DNA of 58,389 nucleotides, the filler included, from Circinaria calcarea (lineage: Eukaryota): assembly GCA_051942165.1 (NCBI GenBank). It is 9 parts of 9 records of this genome, joined end to end, with 100 filler letters (N's around TTAATTAATTAA, not from the genome) between each part and the next. Parts side by side here need not be neighbours in the genome. Positions count along the whole stretch, not along the records: positions 52,011 to 58,389 come from JAVECS010001600.1; 8 more parts are not named here. The stretch is one strand, 5' to 3'. Each line of letters opens with the position of its first letter. The first letter of the stretch is position 1. Under the pieces are notes generated by a model. The model worked only from the letters and a program-made list of their open reading frames with translations. It did not search any database and had not been told where the DNA came from. Made by a program: the position numbers and the translations under genes. Shown here piece by piece: positions 1,840 to 58,389 of this stretch.

Positions 1840-3766
1840 GGTGAATTATGCACGAAAAGTACTGATGCTGTAGATGACTGTTTGTGCTCGGTGTACCGCG
1901 AATAAAGAATGTTTGATTGGAATGAGTGACTTTGGTGAAAGCGTGTATATATAGATAGAGGATATTAACAAATGCTAAAGAGCGACTGTAGTTTGAAGCA
2001 CTGGAAAAGCTGCAGAGTAAGAAGGAGAGGCTGACCACAATATGTAGGCAGGCTACTTCCGTCTTATAGGGGCGTGGCGCATTTCATCTCAACCGACTTC
2101 GAGGCTCGGGGATTTCCCCTGAGAGCCACCATCTCTCATTCCGTCCAGCCGATGATCTTTTATTAGCCTCCTGTTGGAAATCATCCGTAATATCCAACGC
2201 CTCCGCCTCCTCGGCCGTCGTTTCTCGTCGTTGTGATTGGAATCGTCAACCGAAACAATTTCCTTTCGTCTGGAACCGGTAAGGCTGGTTTCTCGCTAGC
2301 CTCGAAGTCGACCGGGGTACGGGAGATTGGGGGAGAAAAGATCCGGGCGTGCCGGGGGTAATTTTAAGCGGCATCTCTCCATCAACTACAAGTACTCCGT
2401 AAAAACGAATGATACTTTATATTCCCGCTCGCATCTCTGGGGGATGGGAAGTTGGCGAACCGGTGGTGGTCAAACTCGCGTCTAAAAGGCACGCCGTCAA
2501 AGCTTCCTGCAGTCTGTTGACCTTACGGATGACAGTACGGAGTAGGTGGCCAAGGCACGTAACAAAGTACTCGTTAACACGACGAGCACCGGGTATTCCG
2601 ATAAGAGCCCTTCACCCGTCTTTGCAGCGGCTACAATAGACATGATGGAAATGGTCGACGGCCTGCGCTGCGAGGAGTGCACTCGGTATAGTTGAAAGAT
2701 TTTGCGACACGGACTATTCTTCGATGGGTCGGACTTGTTGTGGCGTGTAGTAACATGGAGTTCGGAGGCAGGCGGATTACACAGACGGGATTACATATGC
2801 AGGGACACCCGTCCATTTCACCCGTGCCCACTGTACAGAGTACACAGAAGGTCGACCGCCACGCGGATCCCGTGTCAATGGCATGGCGGGGCATACCATA
2901 CTTCTTTTCTAGAACACCTCTGCCAGCCCTGTAGATCATCCCGCCCCGAAGGTGGTGGAGCATCGGAAAGAGGGGGTTGATCAAGTGAATTAAGAAGTCA
3001 ATTAAGCTTTCCTCTATCTTTTAGATGTTCATCTCTCACAAACGCTCAAGCCCAGGCCCCACCAAAAAACAAAAAAAAAAGATAATCCATCGAGTTTAGC
3101 TAGTCGATAGTCGATAGCCGAGACCCTGTCGCATCTGGAGACGAAACACGCTGCGCAGATTAGTACCTTTGTACCTGATTTGATCTCATCTCTGTTTGTT
3201 GCTGTCGCTGGCGTCAAGCAATCATCGTGTCTGGAAGTCAACTCGATCGTCCTCTGATTGCCTCCCACTCCGCTTCAACTCCGACGAGTTCGGCGAGGAA
3301 ACCCCTTCCCTATCCTTCCCTATCCTGTACCCCTCTCTTCCCAAAATCGTCGATACAGCACCCAACGAGCCGAAGCTGTTCTGCCGACTCACAGTTGACG
3401 GAGAGACCTTCCGGTCCGACGGCTTGTTGATCCTCACTCAGTCATCATCCTTTCTACGCTTTCCGGACCATCTTTCCTCAATGCGATCCTCGCTGCCCCT
3501 CACGCGCCAAACTGCAGAACCCCAAAGGGTGCAATTGCTTGAATAGCAGCGAATACAAGGGATAGAATCAGAAAACGTGCACAAGGAGAATCAATAATTG
3601 TAAGAGGAGGAGATTTGTACGACGACTTCACAACTGGCCGACCAGATGCGCGTCTCGGGAGCTATGCAACTACTCGTTCGGTGGTGCTGCGAAGGTTCGT
3701 AGCAAGCTTTCGGGCTACCTCTGCCATAGAATACATCCTCCCCTCGGCATATACGCAGAAATCACG

Positions 3767-6421
3767 ATGCGGCGTCATCACAGGAGCAGTGCCAGTGCAG
3801 CGACGTTTGCAAAGGCCAGCAATGTCCCTATCCCTGACGCGATATCGTTGATCAGGACCTTCAACTCCGAGACTAATCCGTCCAGACCTGTTCGACCATC
3901 ACCTTTGACGGCATCGCCCATTCAAGGGATGCCGCTGGATGTGCTCGATAGAATTCGCTCCTTTCCTCTATTTCTCTCCGCGCCAGAGTCGTTTCTAGTA
4001 GCCATTGGAGCTCATCTGCGGCCTCAATCGCACTCGACTCATGACTACATCCTTACCGAAGGCGACGAAGCCAAAGCCATGTATTGGTTGGTTAGAGGGG
4101 TTGTCGCTGTCACGTCTAGGGACGGCGAAAGTACATATGCAGAACTGAAGCCTGGAGCTTTCTTCGGAGAAATTGGAATATTAATGAATATACCACGCAC
4201 TGCAACTATCGTGGCCCGGGCGAAATGCTTGTTGGTGGTTCTGAAACAGGAGGACCTGAAAAAGGTGCTGCCAAGTTTCCCAGAGGTTGAGCGAGCGATA
4301 CGAGACGAAGCCGAAGAAAGGCTTGTCATCTTGGACCGTAAGAAGAAAGAGAAATTGACTACCAACTCTCCGGATTCTAGTTTTCTGCAAGCTCGTGGAG
4401 AGAAGAGGGCCTACGGTGATGAGGATGGCGACGTTATCATGCATAATGATGGGTCTACACGATCGAATGGGACGATTAATAACAAAAAAAGAAAATCTCC
4501 ATCTCCAGGCCTCGTAAACGTAACACCATCCAGCGCGCTTGGAAGCGGAATGGTGCATGTGAGACAGCTACTCAAGGAACTGCCTCTTTTTTCCGAACTA
4601 CCACCTGAAATGCTGCATTTCCTGGGTTTGAATGCCCAACCGCGTACGTACCCACCATTCACCGATATCATCCAACAGGACTCGCAAGGGCGGGAGATAT
4701 ACTTCATCGTTCGAGGAGAGGTAGAAGTGATTGACGAAAAGGCAACCGGCCAAACTTGTAATCTACGCCTGATGCCAAGTGGAAGTGGCAGGAATACAAG
4801 GGGAGGACTCCAAGTCAAGGCCCGCTTGAGGCAGGGTCAGTACTTTGGCGAAGTCGCAAGCCTATCACTCGCTCCTCGAAGGACCGCCACGGTTCGCTCT
4901 ATTTCTTCGGTTGAATGTTTGGTGATCCCCGGGGAGGTACTGGCCGAATTCTGGACGCGATGCCCACCATTACTCAAGGAGCAAGTGGAGAAAACGGCAC
5001 GGCAGAGACTGCAGTCGAAACCGGACAACGATATTATTATGACAGACTCCACAGATTCGACTCCTCCGATAGATGAACTGGCAATTGGGGACAAAGTGCC
5101 GAAACCACCTAGAAGGCAGTCTGTTCCCATGGTAACATTGAGTTTCACCAAACCGGAAAGCCCTCATAAACCTAGTCGGATTGAGGACCGTCCGGTGATA
5201 GAACCTTTTGATCCCGACCCATTCCTCAACGCAGACCTTGACAACATCCGCTCTCGCTCCAGACGACCTTCTCTGGCACCTCCACCCCCAGACGCTCCAC
5301 CCAATGGCCATGAGAAGAGACCCGTAACAAAGTCTGCTGCACCTGCTAGGATCAAACATGCCATTACACCTCCTGACATCTACCTAACACCCAAGCGACC
5401 TAAAATTCTACTGCAGAGGCCGAGCGAAGTTAGCAACGGCATTTTTCATAACAACATCCTCATCTCGATCTTCTCACATTTAGATTTACATCATTTGATG
5501 CAACTGCGACGAGTGTCAGTTCATTGGTCCAGGCTGCTTCGGGAATCACCAGATTTACTACAACATCTTAATCTTTCCATGTACAACCGTAGGATTACGG
5601 ACTCTGCTCTAGTCAATCAAATCTGTCCTTTCGTCGGGACAAGGCCTCGCCATATCGACATAAGCAACTGCTTCCACATGACCGACGAGGGTTTCACCGC
5701 GCTTGCGGTTACCTGTGGAGGTAGAGCTATATCGTGGAAGATGAAAAGCGTCTGGGACATCACGCAGGTCGCCGTTGTCAAAATGGTCGAAACCGCCAAA
5801 AATCTGGAAGAAATCGATCTGAGCAATTGTCGGAAAGTTAGCGATACCCTTCTTGCAAGAGTGGTAGGTTGGGTGGTCGAAGGTCCATCGACACAGATCC
5901 AAACACCTCATCCTAATGGTCGACGCGGTGCTTCCCGATTTGGTATATCTCAGAATGTCCCTATCGGTACCGTCCACGGATGCCCGAAGTTGAAGAAACT
6001 CACTCTGTCGTATTGCAAGCACGTAACAGATCGGTCAATGGCTCACCTAGCAGCTTATGCGCATACCAGACTAGAAGAAATTGACTTGACGCGCTGCACC
6101 ACCATCACCGATCAAGGATTTCAGCAATGGGGTCAGAAGGCTTTCACGAGATTGAGCAAGCTTTGTTTGGCAGACTGTACATACCTGACTGATAATGCAA
6201 TCGTCTATCTGACCAATGCGGCCAAGGGGTTGCGAGATCTCGATTTGGTGAGCAAGCATCAATGTCTTCATGATGAAATACGTTTTAACATAAAACTTCC
6301 TACAGTCCTTTTGCTGCGCTCTCTCCGATACCGCCACCGAAGTCCTCGCCCTGGGCTGTCCCCATCTCACCCACCTGAATCTCTCGTTTTGTGGCTCCGC
6401 CGTCTCAGACTCCTCCCTCCG
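3767..6421 (+). CDS. Protein with two cyclic-nucleotide-binding domains, an F-box and leucine-rich repeats; 3' truncated by contig end; intron 6248-6305
   Basis: CNB motifs FFGEIGILMNIPRTATIVA and YFGEVASLSLAPRRTATVRS; F-box ILISIFSHLDLHHLMQLRRVSVHW; Cys-containing LRRs (LEEIDLSNCRKVSD, LKKLTLSYCKHVTD); GTGAGC..TACAG intron restores SFCCALSDTATEVLALGC. Confidence 0.9.
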
Positions 6422-6521
6422 NNNNNNNNNNNNNNNNNNNNNNNNNNNNNNNNNNNNNNNNNNNNTTAATTAATTAANNNNNNNNNNNNNNNNNNNNNNN
6501 NNNNNNNNNNNNNNNNNNNNN
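6422..6521. other. Artificial 100-bp contig spacer (N run with TTAATTAATTAA). Identical spacers at 12933-13032, 19435-19534, 25936-26035, 32437-32536, 38932-39031, 45423-45522 and 51911-52010
   Basis: Same linker with stops in all six frames; genes are cut at the spacers; contig lengths fall or stay equal from one to the next. Confidence 0.98.
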
Positions 6522-8134: not shown

Positions 8135-9178
8135 GATTGCGTAGGGGGAATAGTGTGGTAGTTGCGCTGGGAGATTTTAGATAGTACAGGATGGGATTTG
8201 GGCGTGGCAGTTCCTGTGGTGGTGTATCATCTCGTAAATATACTGTTGGAGGGAGTATCGATAGAGATCTCGGCTACTGTAGGGCAAGAGGTTTGCCAAG
8301 TCTTGGATGTATTTAGTCAATCTTAGGAATTACGTCGGTTTTGCAGCATACATCTACTGATGGCTACCAGCGACTGGCCCAGATAAGGGGCGTTGAAGAT
8401 TATGCACCGCCTACAGAGCTGGTAATAATTGGAAACTTCTCCTCAAATGAATGATCATTAGGGCTTTGTAGAACTGTTCCCTCTATTTACCCCATGTGAC
8501 ACCAAGGGTAGACTGCTTCTGGAGCACTATCATCCAATGGCGGAACCTTTATATTTTCGCAGGTTATCTATTTGTGGAAGCCATTGACAATTGGTGGAGT
8601 GCGGTTTCTTAGAGGAAGAGGAAAAAAAGATGGAACTATGTTGGCCGATGCAGCTGAGCATGAGGATTTTTCGTTTACCACACTGACAGTTGAGACTGGT
8701 TGAAGTGGCAATACCTATACTACAGAGCGAGCCAGCGATAATCTGCTGATGTTACATTTCATATGAGAAGTAGTATAGAGGAGTTGATAGCTGTGCCTTT
8801 ACGAAAGCCCGTGGGAGGTATTAATAATGCAATATAGCAAGATATTGGGGACTCGCCTGTCTATAGACCGACGTATAAGTCTTTCAGAAGGAAAGTACTG
8901 AGGGAGTTGACAACGTTGACGACTCTATGGTTGGCACTTTCCTCACTCGATGATCAACTTCCCTCATGTTGTTACTTCTCTGATCACTTCTCATCTTCAC
9001 CTCTTCTCTCCTTGCTTGTCACTCTTTGCTTACCAGCCGACGTTCGTTTCGAATACTTTGCTTTCCTTGCTCATACAATTTTGGATAGATTGCTTTGCTT
9101 TGCTCTCTTTTTGGCAAGGGTAATGCATTTGCGTTTGCCAAAATAATTTACAGCAGGCCTTCTTTCTCTTAGCCCCAG

Positions 9179-12100
9179 ATGCTATCCCGTGGGGACAGCA
9201 ATGCTTCGTCAAATCTTCGTCGAGCTAAGTCTACATCTTCGGCCAGAACAAATGTGCCTCCATTGGATCCCCAAAGTCTTGACCCAGAACTCGCCCGTCG
9301 TCAAGCTCTTACTGCTGCAAACATCGCCTTCGAGCGCGCCCATGATCGTGTGTTTGGCTCCAGTGGCGCGGACAGTTCCATGACCAAGGGGGGTAAAGAT
9401 GAGACTGGAGTGATGGAAGATGGAGATGAAGCATTGCATCGGAGACAAAGTGTCCGCTTCACGGGGCCAACAGCTGGTCCAAGTCTACAACGTTCGATAA
9501 CCAGACGTCAAGCGCCAACCATAACTGTTGATCCAGCATCAAGACTGCAAATACCACCGTACACTCAAACGCAGAGAAGTTCATCTCCTCATGGCTCCCT
9601 AAGTTCGGCAACCGCTACATCAAAGTCCAACGATTCGTCCTCGCGTAAGATTAGGAAGTCGAGGTCGGTGTTCAATACCCGAAAAACACCTCCGATGGTG
9701 CTGAGACGTCGAGGCTCCAATGCCGAAGGTCCTCAGGAACAAGGAAACCGTCGGTTCTCATCAAGCAGTGACTGCAAAGTGCACACGAGTACCAAGTCGC
9801 AAGGTACGGTATTTGTCTGTCGTCCGAATGACAAGGGCATACCAACCTTACAACAGCCAGAATACACCCATGACGCGGCAATCCAGTTAGCTCGGGATGA
9901 GTATCTTCGCCAATTGGAAGAGCAGAGGTTGAGGGAACGGCCTTCATTTCTTTCCCTTAATAATAACCGGTCTCAAAAGTCCTTTCGGAGAACAGTTCGC
10001 ACTAACAGTACCAATGGCTATGGAAATGCAATAGCGTCGCCCATGTCTCTACCATTGACAAAGCCCAAGGGGATCGGAACCAAAGCAAGAGATATTTCCA
10101 TATCACTCAAGAACAAGCTCAAACGTATGTTCCAAAAGGAGCAAACCTCTGATCCTGTCTTCCCGAACCAGCAGATAAACTCACAGCGTCAACACTTTGG
10201 AGACCAAATTAATCTCACATCAAAATCAGACCGTGGGCCCCAATCCATACCAGTTCCAGGCCACGAGTTGCTTCATCGGGTTAATTCACGCCCGGTATCA
10301 CCGCTTCGGATGCCAGTCCACCTTGATCAAGCGGATAGTCCAGGTAGCATCAGAAGTATATCTGGAAGTGATCACCCTAGCTTTTCAGCTTCCCGGGTCA
10401 CCAGCTGGGCAAATTCCACGGCTGCAAATACATTGAGCAAACAAGAGCTTACGGAAAAGCAACGTCTCTCGATTATTCAGGAGAACGGAGGACCATACCA
10501 ACCGTCGTCAATAGCGAATAGTCGAGCTGGTATTGCTGCTCGTAATGGCTATGCACTGTTTCGAAGACCTCTGCATCGCAATAACGACAGCGACAAGACT
10601 AACGCTCCCATCAATAGCCAGCGCGTATTCTCGGCATTACAGAAGAGACTTAATGGACAGAATCACAGTAAACAGCCAGACGTGCGTACACAACACAACA
10701 CTTCTGCGCCGCAAGAGAAAGAACATGAAAAAGAACAGGATTATTTTGGAGATTACCCACGAGATGTTACTCAGATCTCCCGAACCCCTACGCCTACCAA
10801 CAGAGGTATAACGAGGCCGTTCGAAAATGGGCTGACAGGCGACGCTCGGATCAGAGGATCGAAGTCTTCCAACTTCGAAAACTTACCTATTGGTTATGGT
10901 AACAATGTATTCAGATCTTCATCTGCGGGCTCAGCAAACCGCAATCCTGTACCAGGAGGTGCAGATCGCCTTCGTGACTTGACACCGCAGCAAATTGCAG
11001 ATCTCAACGAAAAGTCAAAGAAACCACTGAGAGAAGTCAAATCAGCATTTTTTCCGTCCACTACCGACTATCAAAGTGCGATTATTAGTCCATTCAGAAG
11101 AGCACTTCTCTCCAGTGACGAGGATGAGAAGAGTGAGATTCAGAGGAGAAAGAAACGGCACCGCCATACAGTACAATTACTCCAACCATCCGGTAAGCCA
11201 TATCAGTCATCCAAGTCAGTCAAAGCTGGGTTCCAAGTTGGAAGTACCACTGGTTCAGAAAGCGCGTATTCTAGAACGACGAGTGGCCGCACTCCCCGAC
11301 CTTTCGATACCCCACGGCCTTATGAGAGCACCACGTCGCTGGCGAGATCTGAAAGTAGTGTTGAGCCGGGTGTTGCGCTAATCCATACTGACGACCCTAC
11401 CAATCTCTCTCGTTCTAATCGACCTGCCATTCGCCGCCGTATGTCACTTTCCGAGCCCAGCGGAGAATGGAAAGAGTGGATGGCTACCCAGGTGTCTAAT
11501 CTGGAAGTCCCCAGCAGCAGTGATATTCAGCTATCAAAGCCATACGCTGGTAAGGAGAATGCGCATAGAAAGGGAAAAGGTCACAAAAGGGAGAACGCTC
11601 AGATTCACGGAGACGACACAGACATTGGCTTAAGTCGGCCCCTGATTTCTGCTCCAAAGCAGCCCTTGGGGAACCTGCAAAAGAGCGCTACCCCCAGGCC
11701 GCAGCTAATGCACAAGACCTCTGATCAAATGTTCGAAAAGTATCCCCTTCGTTTCCCTCTGATTGAGCGACCGGCATCAAGGACAGATAAGCAAACGAGA
11801 CAGGTATCTACCAAAACAAAAGATTCGTCGGAGTCGTTGAAGCAAACGGTTTCTAACGCCGAGAATCTGCGAGTACCCTCCCAAAGGCACCGTCAAACGA
11901 GTACGCTGCGCCCATCAGCATCATACGCATCTCTCGGAGTACAAGAAGCACATCAGCTGAGATCTGTAATGGATAACGAGAAACTACAAAGACCGCAACT
12001 TCGGGAGAGCCGTAGTATGGGCAATAGTCGGACCTCATTAAAGATGAGCCCTTCGACCAACTCGGGCAGTCGATACAGTCCGGAGCGGCAAGCACGTCTT

Positions 12101-12385
12101 CGCCGTAGACGAAGCAATACCACATTGGACTGGAAAGAGAATATGGGCAACCCTAGCCAGCTGCATCCACTACGGAGCAACCGACCGGAAAACCAGGGCA
12201 TGAATGAAACTAGATCGAGTTTTTCGGCAGAAGATCTCTCTGGCGCTCGTGGCACCAGCCTACTGTATCCGGTTACGACGCGGCAGCAGGTCGAAGGGAC
12301 GAAGAAGCTGGTGGATCTCTTCTTGAACAGCCGACGAACGAGCATACAGATGAGTGAGGAGCATTCGGCCCCTGCTTTCATCTAG
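9179..12385 (+). CDS. Large intronless Ser/Arg/Pro-rich, probably disordered hypothetical protein (1068 aa)
   Basis: 3.2-kb uninterrupted ORF from ATG; no domain recognised. Confidence 0.75.
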   Translation: MLSRGDSNASSNLRRAKSTSSARTNVPPLDPQSLDPELARRQALTAANIAFERAHDRVFGSSGADSSMTKGGKDETGVMEDGDEALHRRQSVRFTGPTAGPSLQRSITRRQAPTITVDPASRLQIPPYTQTQRSSSPHGSLSSATATSKSNDSSSRKIRKSRSVFNTRKTPPMVLRRRGSNAEGPQEQGNRRFSSSSDCKVHTSTKSQGTVFVCRPNDKGIPTLQQPEYTHDAAIQLARDEYLRQLEEQRLRERPSFLSLNNNRSQKSFRRTVRTNSTNGYGNAIASPMSLPLTKPKGIGTKARDISISLKNKLKRMFQKEQTSDPVFPNQQINSQRQHFGDQINLTSKSDRGPQSIPVPGHELLHRVNSRPVSPLRMPVHLDQADSPGSIRSISGSDHPSFSASRVTSWANSTAANTLSKQELTEKQRLSIIQENGGPYQPSSIANSRAGIAARNGYALFRRPLHRNNDSDKTNAPINSQRVFSALQKRLNGQNHSKQPDVRTQHNTSAPQEKEHEKEQDYFGDYPRDVTQISRTPTPTNRGITRPFENGLTGDARIRGSKSSNFENLPIGYGNNVFRSSSAGSANRNPVPGGADRLRDLTPQQIADLNEKSKKPLREVKSAFFPSTTDYQSAIISPFRRALLSSDEDEKSEIQRRKKRHRHTVQLLQPSGKPYQSSKSVKAGFQVGSTTGSESAYSRTTSGRTPRPFDTPRPYESTTSLARSESSVEPGVALIHTDDPTNLSRSNRPAIRRRMSLSEPSGEWKEWMATQVSNLEVPSSSDIQLSKPYAGKENAHRKGKGHKRENAQIHGDDTDIGLSRPLISAPKQPLGNLQKSATPRPQLMHKTSDQMFEKYPLRFPLIERPASRTDKQTRQVSTKTKDSSESLKQTVSNAENLRVPSQRHRQTSTLRPSASYASLGVQEAHQLRSVMDNEKLQRPQLRESRSMGNSRTSLKMSPSTNSGSRYSPERQARLRRRRSNTTLDWKENMGNPSQLHPLRSNRPENQGMNETRSSFSAEDLSGARGTSLLYPVTTRQQVEGTKKLVDLFLNSRRTSIQMSEEHSAPAFI

Positions 12386-12932: not shown

Positions 12933-13085
12933 NNNNNNNNNNNNNNNNNNNNNNNNNNNNNNNNNNNNNNNNNNNNTTAATTAATTAANNNNNNNNNNNN
13001 NNNNNNNNNNNNNNNNNNNNNNNNNNNNNNNNCATTGTCAAGATAGCTTTGTGGTATGCTTCATTACTGATGCAGCCGCCAATAG

Positions 13086-29209: not shown

Positions 29210-29574
29210 GCTGTTGATGGTTCTTGAGAGCGGGATATCTGAGAAAATTGTATTGAGGGTCAAGAATGGCAACAGTTCTTTGCGTGAGGTCTTGAGGAGT
29301 GCCAAGCTTTGAGGTTGGGGATCCTTCGCGACAATACCCGCAGTTCGCTTCTCCTTCATGCGCTTTCAACCACTGTCACTCTGCTTTCACTTGACTGTAT
29401 GGCATACTGATTGAGATATATAGTTCACAGCCGGGAGGGTTTAATGAGTTTCAAATCAGTGCTCATGGATTTCCAGGTCTCTGTCACATCTGTCTCCTCC
29501 ATACTAGTCAAACGGTACTAGATCATGCGTATCTCTTCCTATCCTTATCATCCTTTTAGGTGCTTGGTATTACA

Positions 29575-30704
29575 ATGCAGATCCTCGAGCTTCCACCAGA
29601 TATCCGGCTAGAATTACTAGCAGAAGGGGCCGCAAACATAGTTTATCGACTTATTTTCCCTCCGAGGAGCCCTACTATCAACTCAGAATCTTACTCTGAA
29701 GACGAAGACTATGGCCCTGATACTCCGCCGCCCACGGAAATACCGATGCTACGCCCAGATCAGTTAATCAAGGGCAAGCTATTGCGGCTCAGAAAAGATC
29801 TTCTCACTTCAACCTCCGTCTTCGATGCTCAGCAGGCTTTCGAGGAGTGCATCAAGCCTCGCTTCTCCAAGGATGATTTGGTAGAACAGGACTTAATCCG
29901 ACTACCTCCAGGTCTGGTTGAGACCTGCAATAAAGAGTTACGGAGAACGGAGACCGAAATGATTAGACCCAGAAAGCGCCATGGGGTCTATCTGTCCAGT
30001 GCTGAGCCTTACGGGATCGTAGTGACGGACATGTCTTTGAATGGTCACGAGGATGTCCTTGGCATTGAATTCAAACCCAAGTGGCTGGCCCAGTCTCCAT
30101 CTGCCCCAGCGGGCGCAAGGAGATGCAGAACCTGTGCGCTGCGCATGATGCGGATTGCCAACAATAGAAACACTGGAGAGCAAGTACTCACATTGAAAGA
30201 AAGTTTCTGCCCTTTAAACCTCGTTTCCCTCGACAGAGCCAAGGTTGCTGCCACAATCAATGATATACTACGCGGTTCTAGTTGCTCAGAACCTCTGAGT
30301 TCCCGCATCCTCGATTTCATTTATCAGTCGCCCTTGTTACCCTCGTTGAAGGAGCAGCAGGTGCAGCTGGATCCGATTGGTGTGTTCGCGATTTCGAATG
30401 ATAGCATTGATTTCATGACAGCGATGACGTTGAGAGACTGCACACTGTTCGTCAAAGTACGAGACTTGTATCCTTTTGACTAAACGTAGCAGATGATGCT
30501 GACGATTTCCAGATCAACCAAAGCCAAGATTTCGAAATCGAGGCAAGACTCGGAGATCTAGACCTCAAGTCTCCAAGCAAGTTCGATTATTGGCGATCAC
30601 TCGAACGGGAGTTGATTGATGGAGGTTGGTACACGGGTACGAAAGAGTATCCAGCGATGGGAAGTGCGAGGTGTTCTTTGGAAGCAGCAGAATTGCAAGC
30701 ATAA
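29575..30704 (+). CDS. IPK1: Inositol-pentakisphosphate 2-kinase; intron 30457-30512
   Basis: AEGAANIVY, EFKPKWL, RRCRTCA, FCPLNL, AMTLRDCTLF and DLDLKS motifs. Confidence 0.9.
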
Positions 30705-46211: not shown

Positions 46212-48763
46212 TTACTTTTTATTCTTCTCGGCCAGCTGTTTCTCATGTGCTGCAATGAGCTCTTGCCTAGATATCAGGTCAGCCATTATAAGACAGCAGC
46301 AGAGATTGGACCGAATACGTACTGCAGTTGCGGAAGCGCAGCGGCGTAATGTGAGAATTCCATGGAGAACTCGCCCTTTCCTTGTGTGGCTGCTCGCAAT
46401 TGACTCGAAAAACCAAACATGCTATTGAGACTGCAGTCTGCGTAAAGAGAAAAGTCCTCTGGGCCATTCTCCGTGTCGTTGATGATCGCGTTTCTTTTGT
46501 TCAGTAGTCCAACAATGTTGCCTTGAAACTCATTCGGTGCGGTAATCGTCGTTTTCATGACCGGTTCCAGTATCTGCGGTTTGCCCTTTTTGAAAGCATT
46601 CCTAAATGCCTGCTGAGTAGCGTTCTTGAATGCCATCTCCGATGAATCGGTCATGTGGGTAGCACCATCGTTAACAACCATTCTCGTGCCAAGAACCCGA
46701 TGACCAACAAGTGGACCTTTCTCACAAGATGCTTGGAAGCCCTTGTCACAGGCGTAGAGGAATTTCTCGGAAATGGAACCACCACTGACTTGCTCCTCGA
46801 ATTCGTTGGCTTGTACGGTCCCGGTAGGTTCCATCCAACCCATGACCCTAGCATAATCACCAGCTCCACCACTCTGCTTCTTCAACAGATGATCAAAGTC
46901 TACCTTTTCGGTAATGGTTTCACGATATGCAACTTGAGGCTGCCCGGTAACACATTCGACCTTGTATTCCCGACGCATACGTTCGACATAAATGTCAAGA
47001 TGTAACTCTCCCATTCCTGAGATGATAGTTTCTTGACTCTCCGAATCGACGTGAACTCGGAAGGTAGGATCTTCGCGCTGAAAGCGAGACATGGCTTTTG
47101 AAAAGTTGGCAGTGTCTTTGTTGTTCTTTGGCTTAATCGAAAGGGATATGACAGGTTCGGGGACAAACATGGAAGTCATCGAGTATCCTAGAGTACCATC
47201 CGTAAAGGTATCTCCAGAGGCACAATCAATGCCAAACACTGCGCATATCTCCCCGGCTCCAATCTCGGTGACATCTTCCATCTCATTGGAATGCATGCGC
47301 ACGATACGAGGTACCTTGACCTTCTTATTTGTCCGTGCATTAAAGACATAGGCACTCTTCTTCAGCGAGCCCTGGTAAACCCGAATATAGGTAAGTTGAC
47401 CAAAATTGCTTTCTTCCAATTTGAAGGCTAAACCGACAAAAGGCAGGGAATTGTAGGAGACAAGCTTGACAGATGCTTCGTCTCGCCGCCTATCAAGGGC
47501 AAGGTTCTCTACCTCGGCGGGATTGGGTAAGTAGTCACAGACTCCATCCAGCATCGGTTGCACGGATTTATCTGCAAGAGCAGAGCCCATAAAGACTGGA
47601 GTAAATTTGAGTGATATGGTAGCTCTCCGGATAGCAGCCTTTAATTGTTCCATTGTGGGTGTCTGCTCTTCGAGGAAGATTTCTGCAATCTCATCATCAA
47701 CGTCTGCAAGGGTTTCGATCAACTTCTTCCTCCTCTGCTCGACAAGCGATCTCACACTCTCGGGGATCTCATCTGATTCGACAATGCTCTCACCCTTCAG
47801 CCCTTGATTGTATATGGCCTTCATCCGGATCAGATCAACCACACCCCCAAAAGTATCTTCTGACCCTATTGGCACTTGTACAGCTGCGGCATGTATCTTG
47901 AGTTTTTGGTTTATCTGGTCAATGGCCTTGAACGGATTTGCTCCCATTCGGTCCATTTTGTTGACAAAGGATATTCGAGGGACATTGTATCGTTTCATTT
48001 GCCTGTCTACTGTGATTGTCTGAGATTGCACTCCAGAGACCGCACAAAGAATCATGACTGCCCCATCCAGAACACGGAGAGCTCGCTCGACCTCAATAGT
48101 AAAATCAATGTGTCCGGGCGTGTCGATTAGATTGATGTGGTATGTCTCCTGCTTGCCATCTTCTACCTTTACCCAATCACAAAATGTAGCGGCCGACTGG
48201 ATCGTGATGCCCTTTTCTCTTTCCAAATCCATCGAGTCCATTTTTGCCCCGACGGCATCTTTTCCACGGACTTCGTGTATCGATTTGATGCGACCAGTGT
48301 AATATAAAACACGCTCCGTAGCAGTGGTTTTGCCACTATCGATGTGAGCCTGGAACTGTTAATAGAATGCCTTGATTCTCCAGGACTATTGTAGCTTACA
48401 GCTATTCCAATGTTTCGAATACGAGAAAGTCGCGCGGCCTCTTGAGGAGCTAGATTCTCGATAATGGTTTGTTGCGCAAGGTTTTCAGGTTCCGCTGCTT
48501 GCTGGAGTCTATTGCTGTTAGATTGAAGTTCTGCGAGGATCCTCAAAATAGTCAAAGACATACACAGCAGCAGCGGCGCTGGATTGGGGACGTCGGCCTT
48601 GCCATCGCCTATCTAATGGCCATCTTCGTGGTTGTAATCGCTGTGGAGCTAAACATGAAATACATCGGGGCGCATTGAGGCAGGCCGGTCGAGGGAGGCA
48701 GGATGATTGACGCAATGACCGCAGTAGAGTTCTCTGGTATTTAAGAGCAAAATTGGATTGCAT
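46212..48763 (-). CDS. MEF1: Mitochondrial elongation factor G1, 4 exons
   Basis: Arg-rich presequence; [54 protein letters not shown]; last exon [17 protein letters not shown]. Confidence 0.96.
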
Positions 48764-51279: not shown

Positions 51280-52010
51280 GATTACTGTACTACTCGACAA
51301 GGTCGGTGCAGCATCCATCTCCCATCTTTACTTCACAGGGGAATGAACCTACCCCACCTGAATTCTCACCTCCCCTTGCTTTCCCTCCCTCCCATATCCT
51401 CGTTCTCCCCACCACCCTATCTGCCTTCCAGCCTCTCCCCGAAATCTCAACATATATCAACCCCGCGGACTAGCGGATCGAGTAAACCCGAACTAGACCA
51501 TCTATGCGTGTAAGAGCATCAAGTAAAAAGTCACCAGACGCTTTCCCGCTTAGAAGCTTGTGACCGGTTCGGCGACTTTTGCGCCATTCTATACGTACCA
51601 GTAGCCGGTACATACACCAAAAAATAAAAAAGGAGAGAAAAAAAAAGGGAAAATCCCACCGTAGCAGCGCGGCTCGCTCGCTCGCTCGCTCATGTTCAAA
51701 AAAGACCCTAATTCACTTCACTTCAACAAGGGACTAGAGGCTAGAGGCTAGAGAGGCAGGCAGAGCACTCACTTCTCTGGGCCACCACCTACCATAAGCA
51801 GGGGGCGGCGGCCGGCCTTTTTTCATTACATACAAATTAGTGGAAAGTATTTTTATTTGAAAAAAAAACCCCCCGATAAACTCCTCCTGAGCCGCCCCCC
51901 CCTTTTATATNNNNNNNNNNNNNNNNNNNNNNNNNNNNNNNNNNNNNNNNNNNNTTAATTAATTAANNNNNNNNNNNNNNNNNNNNNNNNNNNNNNNNNN
52001 NNNNNNNNNN

Positions 52011-55000
52011 AGACCTGATACCAGAGCATTTCTCTGCAAATCAGCCAGAGTCCGCTGTTCGAGAAAAACGTCGGCTTCATCCAGCAGCACAACTGACTTT
52101 TGTTAGTAAGAATATTCAGTAGCTATGTGCGAGCGACGGACCGCAGCCCCAAATCTTGCCCAAATTGAGAACCGTCGCCAAGTACTAAGAAAGTTAGTAC
52201 TTGATCTCGCTTGTAAGAACTTCCTTGTTGCTTAGGCAGCGAAATGAGGCACACCTTCTCAACGGCCTCTGGATCAGTGCCGATGTCGCCGCAAGTAACA
52301 CGGTATAGGGGCTTCTCAGCAATTTCCGCAACACTGGTATATTTGGTCATGTTAAAGGCAGTACTCTTAAGTGGTACAGTCCCACTCACCTTTCAGCAGT
52401 GAGTGTTTTTCCGGTTCCAGGCCCCCTAAACTTGTCAAACCCCCAGTATTTATGCTGATAACCCTATAGATACTCACCCGTGTAACAAGACAATAAGGCC
52501 GTTTCCCTTTCCATCCATCAAATCGGTTGCTTTCTCGGCTACCAACTGGTTCGTCACCAGTGCAATAATCAGTTCCTTTGTATCGTCTTCCACAACTAGG
52601 CTTTCAAATGCTTGTTTGTTCCATATGACCGGTGATATGAATTGGACTTGAAGCTCGACTATAGAGTGTTTTAGATTAGTACTTTTTCTAACTTGGATTT
52701 TAGGGACTACTAATTCGTACCCCACTTCTTCTCCTGCATCTTGAAACCGTAAACGTGTGCAGGAAGTAACAACAGGAACTCTCCCCCTGGTGGTTCATCT
52801 TGAGCCATCTTTTCCGGACCAAGCTCGTCTCTCAATCGGCGATGGAATACTGCTGCCTTCGGATGCATTTTCCGGTAGGTTGCAATGTCAACCATATATC
52901 TTACGTCGATCTGCGACAAAAATCAGCTACTATGTAGTCCTTCTTCAGGATAAAGTTCAATAACGACGTATCCATACATTGTCTTCCTCGTGTGAGGCGT
53001 CCGATCCGTTGTAGCAAACATAGTTCTGAAACCGGCATTGCCAAAACTTCCTACCTCTATCACGGATTGACATTTCTACCTTGTGGTCGGCATATTGAAG
53101 AGGGTAGATATCTATATCTCGGACAGGCTTTACTTCGCCCGATGACGCCCCATACTGAATTGTAAGCTGTGTGCTGATTTTCTGAAAACAGCCATCAAAG
53201 TCCCATGAAGAAACTTCAACTAGACCCTCTGGTGTCGGTTCCTGTTCCTGATATGTGGAGGAATTTTTAAAAATCCACTTCGGCCAAGTCTCCAATATAT
53301 GGGCCATGTCTTGGTCTTTTGCATGGGAAATCAGGACGGTATTCGGCACAAAGAGATATTTGACATATTTAGGTGATACAAGGCCTTGAGCAAAAAGCTC
53401 ATCAACTTCATTATATTCCTTACCCAAGCTTTCATTTACGTATGTTTTAAAAAGATCGAGCTCTTTTACATGATGTTTCTTCATCTGAGCAACCTTTTGC
53501 TCAAAGAAAGCCCGATCGTGATAGTAAAACAGATATGGACCCTGAATTTCCGAGTAAATATTGAATGCTGGGTATCGTCTTTCTCTTTGCACATCTCCAT
53601 CCACGAGTTTATTTAAGGCCTCACAAAGGATACGAGACACAATTGTTAGTGATTCTCCTGACTTATAAACTTCCTGCTCAGCCCCTACAACTAGGGCATT
53701 TCCACGACCATGGGCTGCTCGCTTCTCTCGCACTCGACCGCCATGGCCGTCACATATATAGTCCTTATAGACAACAAAGGATATATCTGCATGGCGCTCG
53801 CAGTATAGTTCGACATCGCTGATCCTTAGTCGTCCCTGAAGATGAGTTTCGCGATCACCATTCGATAAGAATGAAGGTCACAAGTAACTCGGTGAAGTTC
53901 CTGCCATCTTGGAGAAGGAGGATATACTGCTAATTTTTGTAGTGTCTCATTCTCATTCTCCAGCTTTTCTATTGTTGCCAGAAGGGAGGTCACTGAGTGA
54001 AGATGACTATCATTTGGAGACATTGCAGACGGCTGTTCCTGGCAGAATTTAGTCCTATCGGCTTCCGCAGCCACCGTTTTACCATCACCTTGGCTTGGGA
54101 AACTATTTGTGAGCATGCGAACCTGCTGATCCCATGAAACGGTACCACAAGAATTATACATGTTACCTGAAGCTAAGCGTTCTGGCATGTTAGCAGTATC
54201 TCCCATATCATGGTCCTGGCCCGAGGCTCTGCGGTCTAGCATGTCAGCAGTATCTCCCATATCTTGGTCCTGGGACATCTTTTCGGAACCGTAACGTTCT
54301 TTGTCAGCTTTGGTCTTGGCCTCATATGGTTCGCGCGCATTGGCGTTAAGTGCATTCCATCTCACTCCGAGGACTTTGCCGATTTGATCTGTAGGAGAGA
54401 CATTACAGTCAGTACGGTAGACTCGGCGGAAACATGAGGTAAGGAATGATAGTACCAGAAGTCATGCCAGGGTTGTTCTCTCTTACATTGTCACGTTCTT
54501 CATGGGCGTAGAACATTGGGAGGGAAAGACCCTGACGTGGCATACCCTGAGACATAGTGTTACGGCGTTGCGAGGCTATGTTCTGCGTATATGTTTGTAT
54601 ACTCTTCTTCTGTACATGTGGTTTCTGAGCGAGAAAGGACTCCAACTGCGTTGCTGATAGAAAGCTGGGATTGATCCCAGCTTGCTTTAGAAGGGCGGTG
54701 GCTCGCGCCGATTCTCCTGGTACTTTCTGACGTTGTGGTTGCGATTGCAACACCTCCAGACGCTGACGCTCTTGCTCTTGCTCTCCCCTAGCCACAAGAA
54801 GCCTCTCCTTATTCTGCTGTTGCAGCAACATAAGTTGCATCTGATAGTCTTGGTTGGCATGGCTGCCGGCCTCAGTCGGTAGTGAACCTTCAGGTAGTGT
54901 TGGGGAAATGATTCTGCCAACAGTACGTCGTCCTATAACCTCTCTCGTTACCTGGAGATGTCAACGTGATTGTAGTACCAATCTACCTGCATTGCCCGAG

Positions 55001-55280
55001 AACATACTTCGTTTGAATCTAGATCGAATCTTTTAGAGAGCTGATTGTAGAGAGCAAAAAGTTGTTGTTCATTGACAGAATCAACGTTGGTTTGATCTTG
55101 AGAGATGGTGGATTTCACAAGGAGTTGATAATCATTTGGGATCCTTTGATCTTGGGTTGAATGAAGGGGCTGTTGTGAACCAGCATCTGTTGGTACTTGT
55201 CTCCCTCTGTAGAGTTCTTGTCGTTCTCGGTTAGACTTGGCCACTTGGCTGGCCGTATTTCCCAGTCTTTCTTCAGACAT
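52011..55280 (-). CDS. Fungal AAA+ ATPase with mosaic N-terminus (Som1/SomA-like blocks, Nhp6-like HMG box); multi-exon, 3' truncated, apparent frameshift near 53878 (possible pseudogene)
   Basis: Spliced Walker A GKGNGLIVLLHG|GPGTGKTLTAES; Walker B VVLLDEADVFLEQR..RNALVS; upstream family motifs PYLFYYH, RGRKFWQCR, RYMVD.ATYRKMH, WNKQAFESLV; exons 55280-55008, 54951-54456, 54388 onward. Confidence 0.85.
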
Positions 55281-55705
55281 TGGGCGATTTTAGATATGCA
55301 ATTGCTGTCGACCTTTCGATCCAAGAGGCCGCGTGCGAAAATTTCAGTTGGTCAACCAAGCATGTACAGATGACTCCTGTACGAAACAAGTGGTGCTTGG
55401 GACGAAGAGCGTCAATGAGCTATCGACCTTTGCAAATGTGCTTCGCGCATTCCCCCGCGTTGTCAATGTTCTTCTTGAGCTATGATACTGGATACGGGAG
55501 GTTTGGAATCGGTAACTATTGATGCCAGAATTTTGAATAGATTTACTGCGTACACAAGCCAGAGAAGATGTGGTGCCTCCCCGGCTATGCACGAGGCTGC
55601 GCCCCAGCCCTGCAGGATATCTAAGCAATAGATACGGACTTCGTGTCACACGACTATGAATTTCACCGTCTTTGGTGATACATGTAAAGCGTACATATCC
55701 TAAGA
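55281..55705. promoter_or_regulatory. Putative bidirectional promoter (425 bp) between the AAA+ ATPase and NACHT-like genes
   Basis: Inferred only from divergent start codons at 55280 (-) and 55706 (+). Confidence 0.5.
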
Positions 55706-57476
55706 ATGAACACCAGCATCACATTATCGGCAAGCAACCTTTCAACTTCGCTAGTTACTGGGTGGTACTCGGCTGCTACGAACGCAAGGTAAGTTCATAA
55801 TTACTATGCTCCCGGCTTGCTGCCAAGTGAGTAACTAAACTAGAGAAGCTCGATAGACCCCGCCCGCGAAGCTTATGATGAAGCTATCAAGCTCTTCAAT
55901 GCTGAGCTGACCGGCGATGAGTGCAAGCGAGTATGGTTGAGCGACAAAAACAGCTTGGAGGATGTGCAGAATGCCGTCCTTGACGCGAAGGAAGCATACG
56001 ATAAGAGGCCGAAGCATTCGAAAGCCCGCAAATGGCTCTTAAAGCTTTCATCCCGGGTCACACACTATGGAGCTATAATGGATATATTGGCTCAACACCA
56101 TCCGGAATACACGGCTCTAGTTTGGGGAGCTATAAAACTTCTCTTCGTGGTAAGCCGAGAGAAAATATTGCCATATCCACGAGACGGTATACTCATAGCT
56201 CTATGGCAAGGCTATGGTCAACCAAGGGGAACTGATAGCTCAGCTATCCAAAGCGCTCTCCCAAATCGCGGATGTCCTCCCACGGATTGAGATCAAGAAC
56301 TTGCTCTTTCCGACCGAGATGATGAAAAGCGCGGTGGCAACGCTCTACGCGTACATCATCAAGTTCTGTCAGAGAGCGGTCGGTTGGTACACGGAAGGAA
56401 AGCTGAAGCATGCATTAACCTCTATAACGAGGCCGTCCGCCCTACGGTTCAAAGACCTTGTGGAAGAGATTGCCGAATGTTCGCGCCGAGTAGACAACCT
56501 TGCAGTGGCCTCGGCTCAAGCAGAACAGAGAGACATGCATCTACTTCTCCAGAGGGTGGAACGAATGATCATCGGTCAAGGCGAACCATCCTTCAATTTT
56601 CTAATCGTGTTGCTGATACGCCCCACAGCAAATCAAGGCATTAACCTTGCAAATCATCTCGATACGAATCGAAGAGTATGCGAAATACAGTTTTCTCAAA
56701 TACTCACATTTGCCGCCTCAACGACACTGCTAGATCCGGAAGAAAGCTTTCGTTATTCCATAGCGATGAGCAACCGGCGTCGGTCTCGAAGGATCAACGA
56801 CAACGATCCCATCTGGAAGTCACCGAAGATGCAGGCATGGTCATCTGCAAGATGCTCATCCCTGACGATGATTAACGGGAACTCTGCCACTCGTCACCAG
56901 GCTAAGGACTTTGCTGCAGATATGGTGCACCTTTTACGCACGACGAATAATCCTACAGTTTGGGTCCTCAATGCGTCGCGAGAGATCTCAAGTACTGCAC
57001 CAACAACTATAGATGTGCTCAAACAAATTACATTGCAAGTTTTGAAGATCAACTCGACCCTCCTCGATGAGCGATCCCTGTCTTTGAACGCTGCAAGATT
57101 TCAGAGCGCATGTTCAGAATCAGACTGGTTTAACTTGCTTGGTTCAGCTCTTACAGGTCTTCCGTTAATCTACATTGTCATTGACATTGAGACTGTAACA
57201 TCCAAACTGCCATACAACTTTTCCTGGTTAGCGGCATTCTACACACTATTTGAAGACCTTTCAAAAAGGAACATTTCTACACCGATCAAGGTTATATTAA
57301 TTAGCTATGGCGCTGTACCCTTGGTATTCAGCGGATTCTCGTCAGAGAAAGTGGATGAATGCATTATCAATATCGCGAAGAAGCCTCGTTCTCGTCGCTC
57401 CGCTCGTGTTGCAATTCGAAAGCGAGGAGTAGGAGCATTGCGGCCTCTACTTATTGATACTACAGTCTCGGCGTAG
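55706..57476 (+). CDS. NACHT-N-terminal helical domain plus degenerate NACHT-like domain, no C-terminal repeats; introns 55789-~55848, 56150-56210 and probably 56575-56628
   Basis: RVTHYGAIMDILAQHHPEYTALVWGAIKLLF..LSQIADVLPR..LYAYIIKF is typical of fungal NLR N-terminal domains; then AWSS..SSLTMING, IYIVID and IKVILISY without a GxxGxGKS/T loop. First acceptor site is uncertain. Confidence 0.78.
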
Positions 57477-58389
57477 GGTCACTCGAATTTTATTGTGGAC
57501 CGAAATAGGTATCCGAGCGCGGTACCTAGAGGACGGTTCCTTCTTTTGGGCACGGCTTGTTTCCGTCGACTACGAGATCAGTCTGGTTAGTTACCAACCT
57601 AATATTACTCCTAGAAAAATTTCACACTAAACGAGCCACAGTCATACTCTCAGACCTTGCCGGGATCCGAAGGCACCATCTTCTCAATGACTTTTCCCAT
57701 CCGCATCCTGCCGCCTTCCGTCACTCATTCATCTTTCCAAGGAATCCGTCCGAAGTAGCCTCATTCTCCTAATAGACCCACTCCACCTCGTATTAGTGAA
57801 TCATATCATGTTGCATGTTCAGCCTCACCAACGGGTTCGGCGTCCTCTCTCCATCAGTCTTGGATATATATTGCTGCGTCAAGTCAGTCTTGAAATCGTT
57901 CGACCTGGACCCATGATCGATAACTCTATAATCCTGGCAGTGCTTTCGTGGAAGGCTCTTGGCATAAACATTGAATTACGACTTGATGCTATCACGTCTT
58001 TTGGCCATAATGACCTGCGTGAGAAGTTACGTCGGGTTTGTGAAAATGCAAGAGAAAGTAAGGGGTTTTTTGCATGAGAAATATACAGGATTATGAAATA
58101 GGGCCGTAGGAGTATAATAAGAACAGGTCTTCTCCGCAGGTTTAGCCAGATTGAAACTAAAGACTTTGTCGATGCTCGTCGGGGCCATTCGCCTTTTTAC
58201 TCGAGGAGAAATCCTCATACCCTGAGACGATCTAACTATGAGGCCTAGGTCGGAGCCTCTCTGTCCTTCTATCCCCGTGCATATCCCTACAGCCTGTGGA
58301 AAACTCCCATTGTCCCGGGCATCTATACCTCGAAAGTTATGACCTCGCATCTCACCCCTCCCCCGACCCAAAAAAACCCCTCCTTCCCC

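Follow-up and report, generated by a model that had tools for sequence, protein, structure and literature searches.

A divergent gene pair of Circinaria calcarea, coding for a DUF7025-type AAA+ ATPase and a pseudo-NACHT protein, is probably an undescribed two-gene unit of fungi

Introduction

Genes for proteins that resemble NOD-like receptors (NLRs) are numerous in fungi, and almost none of them has a known partner or mechanism. In plants, sensor/helper NLR pairs such as RGA5/RGA4 and RRS1/RPS4 are encoded head to head. A stretch of DNA from Circinaria calcarea, a lichen-forming fungus of the Lecanoromycetes, holds two genes that face away from each other across a short spacer: on the minus strand the gene of an AAA+ ATPase with a DUF7025 domain (gene A), and on the plus strand the gene of a protein in which a helical DUF7708 domain precedes a NACHT-like fold (gene B). 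A reading of the sequence alone (hereafter the sequence-only reading) had likened them to the plant pairs, with the ATPase as decoy-bearing sensor and an eroded NACHT protein as its partner. Do these two genes belong together and, if so, what kind of unit do they form?

The whole stretch, referred to as the window, comprises 58,389 bases and is made of nine contigs with sizes stepping down from ~6.42 to 6.38 kb. The contigs are joined by N44-TTAATTAATTAA-N44 spacers (window positions 6422-6521, 12933-13032 and so on to 51911-52010), across which no feature was read. The gene pair lies entirely inside the last contig, 52011-58389 (6,379 bp). The comparisons below indicate that it is probably an undescribed two-gene unit, with homologous pairs in several classes of Pezizomycotina.

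Results

Arrangement of the two genes

The ATG of gene A is at 55280 (minus strand) and that of gene B at 55706 (plus strand), which confirms the earlier description of a divergent AAA+/NLR-type pair with starts 425 bp apart. The layout is as follows.

52011..55280, minus strand: DUF7025-type AAA+ ATPase gene (gene A), with a complete 5′ end and a 3′ end cut by the contig end; placed from sequence and relatives
55281..55705, unstranded: shared intergenic region and putative bidirectional promoter, 425 nucleotides (nt) between both ATGs
55706..57476, plus strand: DUF7708/pseudo-NACHT gene (gene B), intact, 554 amino acids (aa), exons 55706-55788, 55846-56149 and 56199-57476

A close relative has kept this arrangement. 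In X1, a DNA run of biocrust metagenome origin, contigs 80-95% alike to the window contig span 29 of its 30 bins, and one of them, ~90% alike, bridges both gene starts (55273-56467).

The divergent pairing is conserved

To follow the pairing beyond close relatives, we scanned metagenome contigs of the Joint Genome Institute with a 10-sequence gene B alignment, and searched the resulting 26 loci by tblastn with the AAA protein P0003 of Pleopsidium. In 13 of the 26 loci, an AAA gene adjoined gene B on its upstream side and on the other strand, in constant orientation. Eight loci with <1.7 kb of upstream DNA (L001, L002, L004, L006, L009, L012, L017 and L025) were set aside, and the remaining five (L007, L010, L020, L022 and L023) had no AAA gene in the 2.6-10 kb available upstream. 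Collapsing near-identical loci left seven distinct groups with the pair and four without it (7/11). As L010 and L020 hold N-terminally truncated copies of gene B, the pair occurs in seven of nine complete, distinct and assessable loci. The flanks, ~121 kb, contain one or two further AAA genes; at that generous density, the probability of finding at least seven of nine loci paired is P = 2.5e-8. Adjacency of homologues, a refutation test set by the sequence-only reading, proved far commoner than chance in the loci and was also seen in four annotated species.

Within the seven distinct paired loci the inter-ORF (open reading frame) spacers measure ~300-800 nt, and gene B is only 34-46% identical to that of the window. 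No third gene was conserved around the pair: only the two families and their antisense ORFs recurred in at least three groups. In two locus groups, another DUF7025-type AAA gene lies at a distance of 4-8 kb (L015:1031-1927, plus strand; L026:2-473, minus strand), which suggests local clustering of these ATPases. As a separate matter, a promoter motif common to the pairs was sought and rejected, since the best 7-mer occurred in four of eight intergenic regions and random stretches of the same loci reached four to six.

In annotated genomes, members of the two families carry consecutive tags or accessions in Geoglossum umbratile (M1839_005669/M1839_005670), Phlyctema vagabunda (KAL3419659/KAL3419660), Mollisiaceae sp. 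(EG329_012140/EG329_012139) and Phyllosticta capitalensis (KAK8240491/KAK8240492), and are separated by one gene in two assemblies of Clarireedia jacksonii. The pair thereby spans four classes: Lecanoromycetes (the window), Geoglossomycetes, Leotiomycetes and Dothideomycetes. Among the best 120 of 2,308 AAA matches, the gene B member and the listed AAA were on different contigs in Phialocephala subalpina, Xylaria cf. heliscus, Xylaria arbuscula, Trichoglossum hirsutum and Botrytis cinerea, which at this coverage carries no weight either way.

The two genes have congruent trees

Maximum-likelihood trees were calculated for 12 pairs (the window, seven loci and four genomes); the sequences from the loci were stitched high-scoring segment pairs and so represent approximate gene models. 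Both trees shared every split with support ≥ 92 and differed only at weak nodes. The shared splits were {L003, Geoglossum}, {L015, L016, L018, L024}, {Phlyctema, Mollisiaceae, window, L003, Geoglossum} and a deep split into two halves. Patristic distances in the two trees were strongly correlated (Mantel r 0.906, a value reached by none of 20,000 permutations), also without the tight four-locus clade (r 0.88; 2 of 20,000 as high). This congruence, which the sequence-only reading had named as a check, fits inheritance of the two genes as a unit, as far as trees can tell. A single clade of paired AAAs was not supported: in a FastTree tree of 126 AAAs, the 12 known to be paired were spread over several clades, with eight changes. 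Pairing may thus be common in this AAA subfamily, or else it was gained or lost several times.

Gene B codes for a STAND-like protein without a Walker A motif

What does the plus-strand gene encode? Its parts are listed below; STAND denotes signal transduction ATPases with numerous domains.

56030..56528, plus strand: DUF7708 (Goodbye-like helical domain), interrupted by a 49-nt intron at 56150-56198
56766..57386, plus strand: STAND/NACHT-like alpha/beta domain without Walker A; P-loop position 56859-56897, Walker-B strand 57168-57191, sensor-1 S-Y-G
57387..57473, plus strand: basic C-terminal tail with no repeat domain after it, from sequence and model

Pfam profiles matched DUF7708 on either side of the 49-nt intron (E 7e-17 and 9e-38) and, weakly, Goodbye in exon 2 (E 0.0022). 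With DUF7708 and the weak Goodbye match, gene B has an N-terminal effector or signalling domain of a kind that belongs to the NLR repertoire, and the helical NLR-type N-terminus that had been proposed for it was upheld. Weak matches to NACHT_N (6/43) and Goodbye (3/43) were also seen among 43 relatives.

The family is large and conserved, with proteins of about 540 aa. When exon 3 was searched against 1.84 billion representative proteins, there were 1,247 matches at E <= 1e-3, 248 of them at E <= 1e-30. Most members have 500-580 aa and match from approximately residue 120 to the end, and all 44 listed matches carry DUF7708 or no Pfam domain. The named relatives come from Leotiomycetes, Dothideomycetes, Sordariomycetes, Geoglossomycetes and Arthoniomycetes, with DUF7708 as the sole Pfam domain in each. 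One protein of 1,089 aa (P0129) combines the gene B architecture, DUF7708 and the part resembling a nucleotide-binding domain, with a C-terminal HET (heterokaryon incompatibility, cell-death) domain. The member of Botrytis cinerea B05.10, BCIN_01g00620 (P0076), has three listed isoforms, and its low gene number suggests a position near the start of chromosome 1.

The AlphaFold2 model of exon 3 (predicted local distance difference test, pLDDT, 85) consists of long helices followed by a beta-alpha-beta domain. When models were compared with 48,161 PDB representatives using VIA-align, residues ~190-396 aligned best with the bacterial defence protein Avs3 (8dgc_A; Z 11.7, root-mean-square deviation 3.6 over 186 aligned residues), followed by Cdc6/Orc1 (Z 10.7), ZAR1 (9.7), CED-4 (9.1), MLA13 (8.7), NRC2 (8.5) and Apaf-1 (8.4). 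The full-length Geoglossum orthologue (pLDDT 80) reproduced this list, Avs3 scoring Z 11.9. Foldseek against the PDB was weak, with ORC as best match (E 2.9e-3) and none at E <= 1e-3, and the family profile had no match among PDB sequences at E <= 10. The N-terminal helical part matched generic helical bundles only (Z <= 10; MLKL N-domain 8.1), and these matches were not counted. In feature space, the nearest ESM Atlas clusters (scores 0.96-0.97) contain NPHP3_N in 15-48% of their members; DUF7708 co-occurs with NPHP3_N in one Atlas cluster, and nine of the 43 relatives have weak NPHP3_N matches (best E 4.5e-5). The window's own protein matched no NACHT or NPHP3_N profile at E <= 1. Judged from these models, the C-domain of gene B has a STAND/NACHT-like fold.

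The Walker A signature is absent from this fold. The motif G-x4-GK[ST] was found at the P-loop position in none of 183 family proteins, and elsewhere in two; gene B of the window reads G-N-S-A-T-R-H-Q there, against SSLxxVKGxxx[TS]R as consensus of the family. Of 43 relatives, 36 retain the Walker-B Asp, and the sensor-1 position reads SYG, with Tyr replacing Arg across the family. Because Walker A is missing at the P-loop throughout the 183 proteins, the pseudo-NACHT state is a stable trait of the family and not local erosion. The 'eroded NACHT' of the sequence-only reading therefore holds for the NACHT-like fold without P-loop and fails for 'eroded'; 'pseudo-NACHT' is a fair description of the C-domain. 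That the protein lacks repeats proved right: Pfam detected no WD40, ANK or TPR repeat family, and the chain ends ~30 residues past the alpha/beta domain in an Arg/Lys-rich tail that is present across the family.

Gene A codes for a classical AAA+ ATPase with a variable N-terminus

The minus-strand gene was resolved into the following parts.

53880..55280, minus strand: Q-rich N-terminal extension, with motifs common to Pleopsidium P0003; frame A, stop TAA at 53826-53828
54456..54561, minus strand: first half of an HMG box, exon end at 54456; NHP6A residues 14-51, E 0.0025
54389-54455, minus strand: intron splitting the HMG box, between the two halves
54276..54388, minus strand: second half of the HMG box; Pfam HMG_box E 9e-7, NHP6A residues 35-86, E 3.3e-8
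52978..53877, minus strand: conserved N-domain exon with DUF7025 (~53089-53406); PF22942 match at ORF residues 158-263
52390..52425, minus strand: Walker A micro-exon (GPGTGKT), from sequence and the public model P0001
52011..52092, minus strand: last exon present, with Walker B (VVLLDEAD...); ORF 51959-52102, broken off at the contig end

In the Pfam scan, DUF7025 (PF22942) was matched with E 2.4e-7 and 31.4 bits against a cut-off of 27. The public model of gene A, P0001 (821 aa, partial; 98% identity), is annotated as hypothetical in a metagenome-assembled genome of Circinaria calcarea, and an AAA domain (PF00004) is precomputed for it; Walker A (GPGTGKT) and Walker B (LLDEAD) are both present in gene A. 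Its AAA part is a classical AAA domain spread over several short exons. The contig ends at 52011 within the gene, so that the distal AAA domain and the lid (position of AAA_lid_13) are missing. The identification as an AAA+ ATPase thus stood and gained DUF7025 and both Walker motifs, while the truncation at 52011 and a break of the frame at 53878 had been overlooked. DUF7025/AAA_lid_13 ATPases often carry the source name 'related to TOB3', and the best match of the AAA domain among sequences of solved structures was the nuclear AAA protein NVL, a weak one (E 1.6e-6).

The N-terminus differs from one relative to the next. Over both halves the HMG box of gene A is NHP6-like, by the HMG_box profile and by matches to yeast NHP6A. 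It was seen only in the window contig and in the relative P0002; Pleopsidium P0003 shares the extension without the box. Public gene models treat this region in different ways: the ENA model of P0002 reads through the HMG-box intron and the P0001 model splices out the first half of the box. Other related AAAs carry other N-terminal domains, namely a Sin3-type PAH repeat in P0197 and P0216, which are sisters of the paired Phlyctema AAA in the tree of 126 AAAs, and a ubiquitin-like ULD_2 in P0195. Most paired loci have 700-1,100 nt between the first conserved AAA and plus-strand matches, which implies short AAA N-termini. On the sequences compared, this NHP6-like HMG box is a feature of one lineage, and the AAA N-terminus is variable among relatives. 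The AAA partner in Mollisiaceae, P0251, has an N-terminal extension of ~990 aa.

The AAA gene of the window is frameshifted

Is this copy of the unit able to work? One further feature bears on the question.

53877..53879, minus strand: point where 34 nt are missing by comparison with a close relative, at the passage from frame A (N-extension) to frame B (N-domain/DUF7025/AAA)

The reading frame of gene A is interrupted at 53878: the frame on the upstream side reads ...ELHRVTCD before the stop TAA at 53826, and the downstream frame begins PSFLSNGDRETHLQG. Both P0002 (76% identical) and P0003 remain open here, with ~11 more residues. The X1 contigs have 33 extra letters at 53878, with flanks overlapping by one base, which makes 34 nt; reverse-complemented, the extra letters encode DQETQDVFLDV, a stretch present in P0002. 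From this alignment, gene A of the window is read as having lost 34 nt from a conserved segment of the N-domain, which shifts the frame. The P0001 model regains the frame in the 53826-53880 region by a 53-nt intron (GTTACT...TTCAG), whose GTTACT donor is weak and whose removal costs conserved residues. Because gene A is frameshifted, the unit may be inactive in this genome, unless the 53-nt in-frame splice rescues it.

The pair could accordingly be a decaying remnant in Circinaria calcarea, in which the AAA gene is a pseudogene and function is limited to gene B or lost from both. We judge the chances of this to fall a little short of even. It is favoured by the deletion itself, which shifts the frame within a segment conserved in P0002 and P0003, and by the fact that the public model restores the frame only through a weak-donor intron at the cost of conserved residues. 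On the other hand, the frame stays open in those AAA exons that are left, both Walker motifs are preserved in them, gene B is intact, and the contig comes from a metagenome assembly in which mis-assembly is possible. Decay would moreover concern this copy only and is compatible with a conserved unit elsewhere.

Other contigs of the window

The large ORFs of the other contigs are ordinary fungal genes. They include genes for a cNMP-binding F-box/LRR protein (3566-6421, plus strand), an inositol-pentakisphosphate 2-kinase (29560-30483, plus strand) and an EF-G-type elongation factor (46286-48358, minus strand). A 1,070-aa open frame at 9173-12385 (plus strand) matched no Pfam family at E <= 1e-3. 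Each of these four lies on a contig other than that of the pair.

Discussion

A conserved unit in which an ATPase may act on an NLR-like protein

We favour, with confidence slightly better than even, the explanation that the window holds one copy of a conserved two-gene unit of Pezizomycotina, whose AAA+ partner would remodel an ATPase-dead NLR-like protein in trans. The pair is probably undescribed: full-text literature searches, whose scope did not include the supplements of PMC12258605 and PMC9815663, returned no description of it, and no paper was found for DUF7708, DUF7025 or the Botrytis gene ids. Functional coupling of the two genes appears likely. We infer that the AAA+ partner regulates the ATPase-dead protein, and a role of the pair in cell death, immunity or non-self response is plausible.

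How might such a unit work? It would be transcribed divergently from the short shared promoter region. Gene B would represent an NLR that has lost both sensor and nucleotide switch, with the Goodbye-like head retained, and gene A would supply nucleoside triphosphate-driven remodelling in trans, placing the gene B product under energy-dependent control. The ATPase might either restrain or disassemble this product, or else release or assemble it, for example by unfolding an inhibitory element; the helical head of gene B would be the output.

Several observations weigh against this explanation. The case for joint action of the two proteins is a genomic one, and the AAA copy in the window is frameshifted. 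Congruent trees and a high Mantel r are also expected from shared descent in the same genomes and are not proof of co-evolution. The 12 known paired AAAs, the only ones among 126 for which the pairing state is known, are not one clade. Complete gene B copies stand without an AAA gene in the 2.3-10 kb upstream in L007 and in L022/L023, where a cytochrome P450 or a transcription factor is nearby. The evidence from annotated genomes consists of tag or accession order, not orientation. Z scores of 8-12 show a STAND/AAA+-type fold without assigning NACHT specifically. Finally, the HMG and PAH domains on AAA N-termini, together with the basic tail of gene B, would suit a nuclear or chromatin role as well.

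This last point leads to the alternative of a co-regulated housekeeping or nuclear pair, e.g. a remodelling ATPase associated with chromatin or nucleic acids and its adaptor. HMG box, PAH and the Arg/Lys-rich tail throughout the gene B family agree with it, as do the weak match of the AAA domain to nuclear NVL (E 1.6e-6) and the Orc/Cdc6-type folds among the best structural matches of the gene B C-domain. The ORC-type matches, however, reflect a fold common to STAND proteins, and an adaptor of this kind would account poorly for the weak Goodbye/NACHT_N matches of DUF7708, its co-occurrence with NPHP3_N in an Atlas cluster, the HET fusion in P0129 and the gene B family members that have no AAA neighbour. 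We consider a housekeeping or nuclear function doubtful.

A bolder form of the favoured explanation is a split NLR-like switch. Here gene B would provide a STAND scaffold without a nucleotide cycle of its own, bearing an MLKL/Goodbye-like executioner head; the neighbouring AAA+ unfoldase would gate its assembly or release, and the variable AAA N-terminus (HMG, PAH or ubiquitin-like) would read the trigger. We offer this version as speculation and judge it unlikely.

The plant-type paired receptor of the sequence-only reading, with the AAA+ protein as a sensor bearing an HMG-box decoy and the pseudo-NACHT protein as co-expressed helper or executor, fared worse. It draws on the head-to-head arrangement with its 425-nt spacer, on the complete NHP6-like HMG box integrated in the AAA N-terminus and on the other N-terminal domains of related AAAs (PAH in P0197 and P0216, ULD_2 in P0195). 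Yet the minus-strand partner is a classical AAA protein (DUF7025 and PF00004, with PF23232 in relatives) and not an NLR, so the claim of a plant-type NLR pair had to be given up, and neither partner is a canonical NLR. The HMG box was seen only in the window contig and P0002, the extension of P0003 being without it; the 700-1,100 nt between conserved matches in most paired loci could hardly accommodate a decoy; and no effector or target is known. Such a receptor is quite improbable. Inherited synteny with a shared promoter region and no functional coupling is more improbable still, for although the pair is known from genes alone, its eight intergenic regions yielded no shared promoter motif and some gene B family members have no AAA neighbour, orientation and ~300-800 nt spacing are kept in seven of nine distinct loci (P = 2.5e-8 against a generous chance model) whose gene B proteins are only 34-46% identical to that of the window, no other flanking gene is conserved, and the pair recurs in four classes.

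If the conserved unit is what we favour, its occurrence in at least four classes, which include tractable species, makes it a testable idea of how control could be exerted on a STAND scaffold that has no nucleotide switch of its own. Should the split switch be true, it would add a new principle to fungal innate immunity or regulated cell death, one kept throughout Pezizomycotina; a nuclear or housekeeping pair would still give context to DUF7708, to the C-domain of gene B and to DUF7025. Fungal immune repertoires may also be undercounted, because NLR censuses built on a NACHT/NB-ARC match or on C-terminal repeats would miss the pair.

Comparison with known systems

Gene A belongs to the DUF7025/AAA_lid_13 fungal AAA+ ATPases (PF22942, PF00004 and PF23232), with DUF7025 and Walker A/B present; the window's copy differs from other members in its HMG-box extension, its frameshift and its missing 3′ end. 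Gene B resembles fungal NLRs in which a Goodbye-like or NACHT_N N-terminus is followed by NACHT (NPHP3_N), in that a Goodbye-like/DUF7708 head precedes an NPHP3_N/NACHT-related STAND fold. Unlike these NLRs, it has no Walker A, no sensor-1 Arg and no WD40, ANK or TPR repeats, is only ~550 aa long and has an AAA+ gene as partner. Measured against the canonical tripartite fungal NLR, it lacks three features: a NACHT match at profile level, Walker A and C-terminal repeats. Goodbye-like domains are described in the available text of Wojciechowski et al. (2022; PMC9815663) as related to the four-helix bundle of MLKL/HeLo, their function being open.

The best structural matches of gene B, the bacterial STAND defence proteins Avs3/Avs4, share the fold of the nucleotide-binding domain (Z 11.7-11.9). 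They are, however, single-chain active NTPases with sensor and effector domains, and their sequence identity to gene B is 7-8%.

With the plant NLR pairs, as the available text of PMC12258605 presents them, the locus has in common the divergent orientation, a short shared promoter region and an extra integrated domain in one partner; both plant partners are NLRs, whereas a classical AAA ATPase here stands beside a repeat-less NLR-like protein that is predicted to be ATPase-dead. The screen for head-to-head NLR-NLR pairs in Sordariales reported in the same text gave 13 pairs, which were called rare. Because a screen of that design, as outlined there, seeks NLR-NLR pairs, an AAA+/gene B pair would escape it. 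NWD2/HET-S of Podospora offers a fungal parallel, as an NLR-type gene adjoining the gene of its functional partner; in the available part of that account (PMC4344463), signalling proceeds by amyloid templating from the NLR to a HeLo pore-former, whereas the partner of the NLR-like gene described here is an ATPase.

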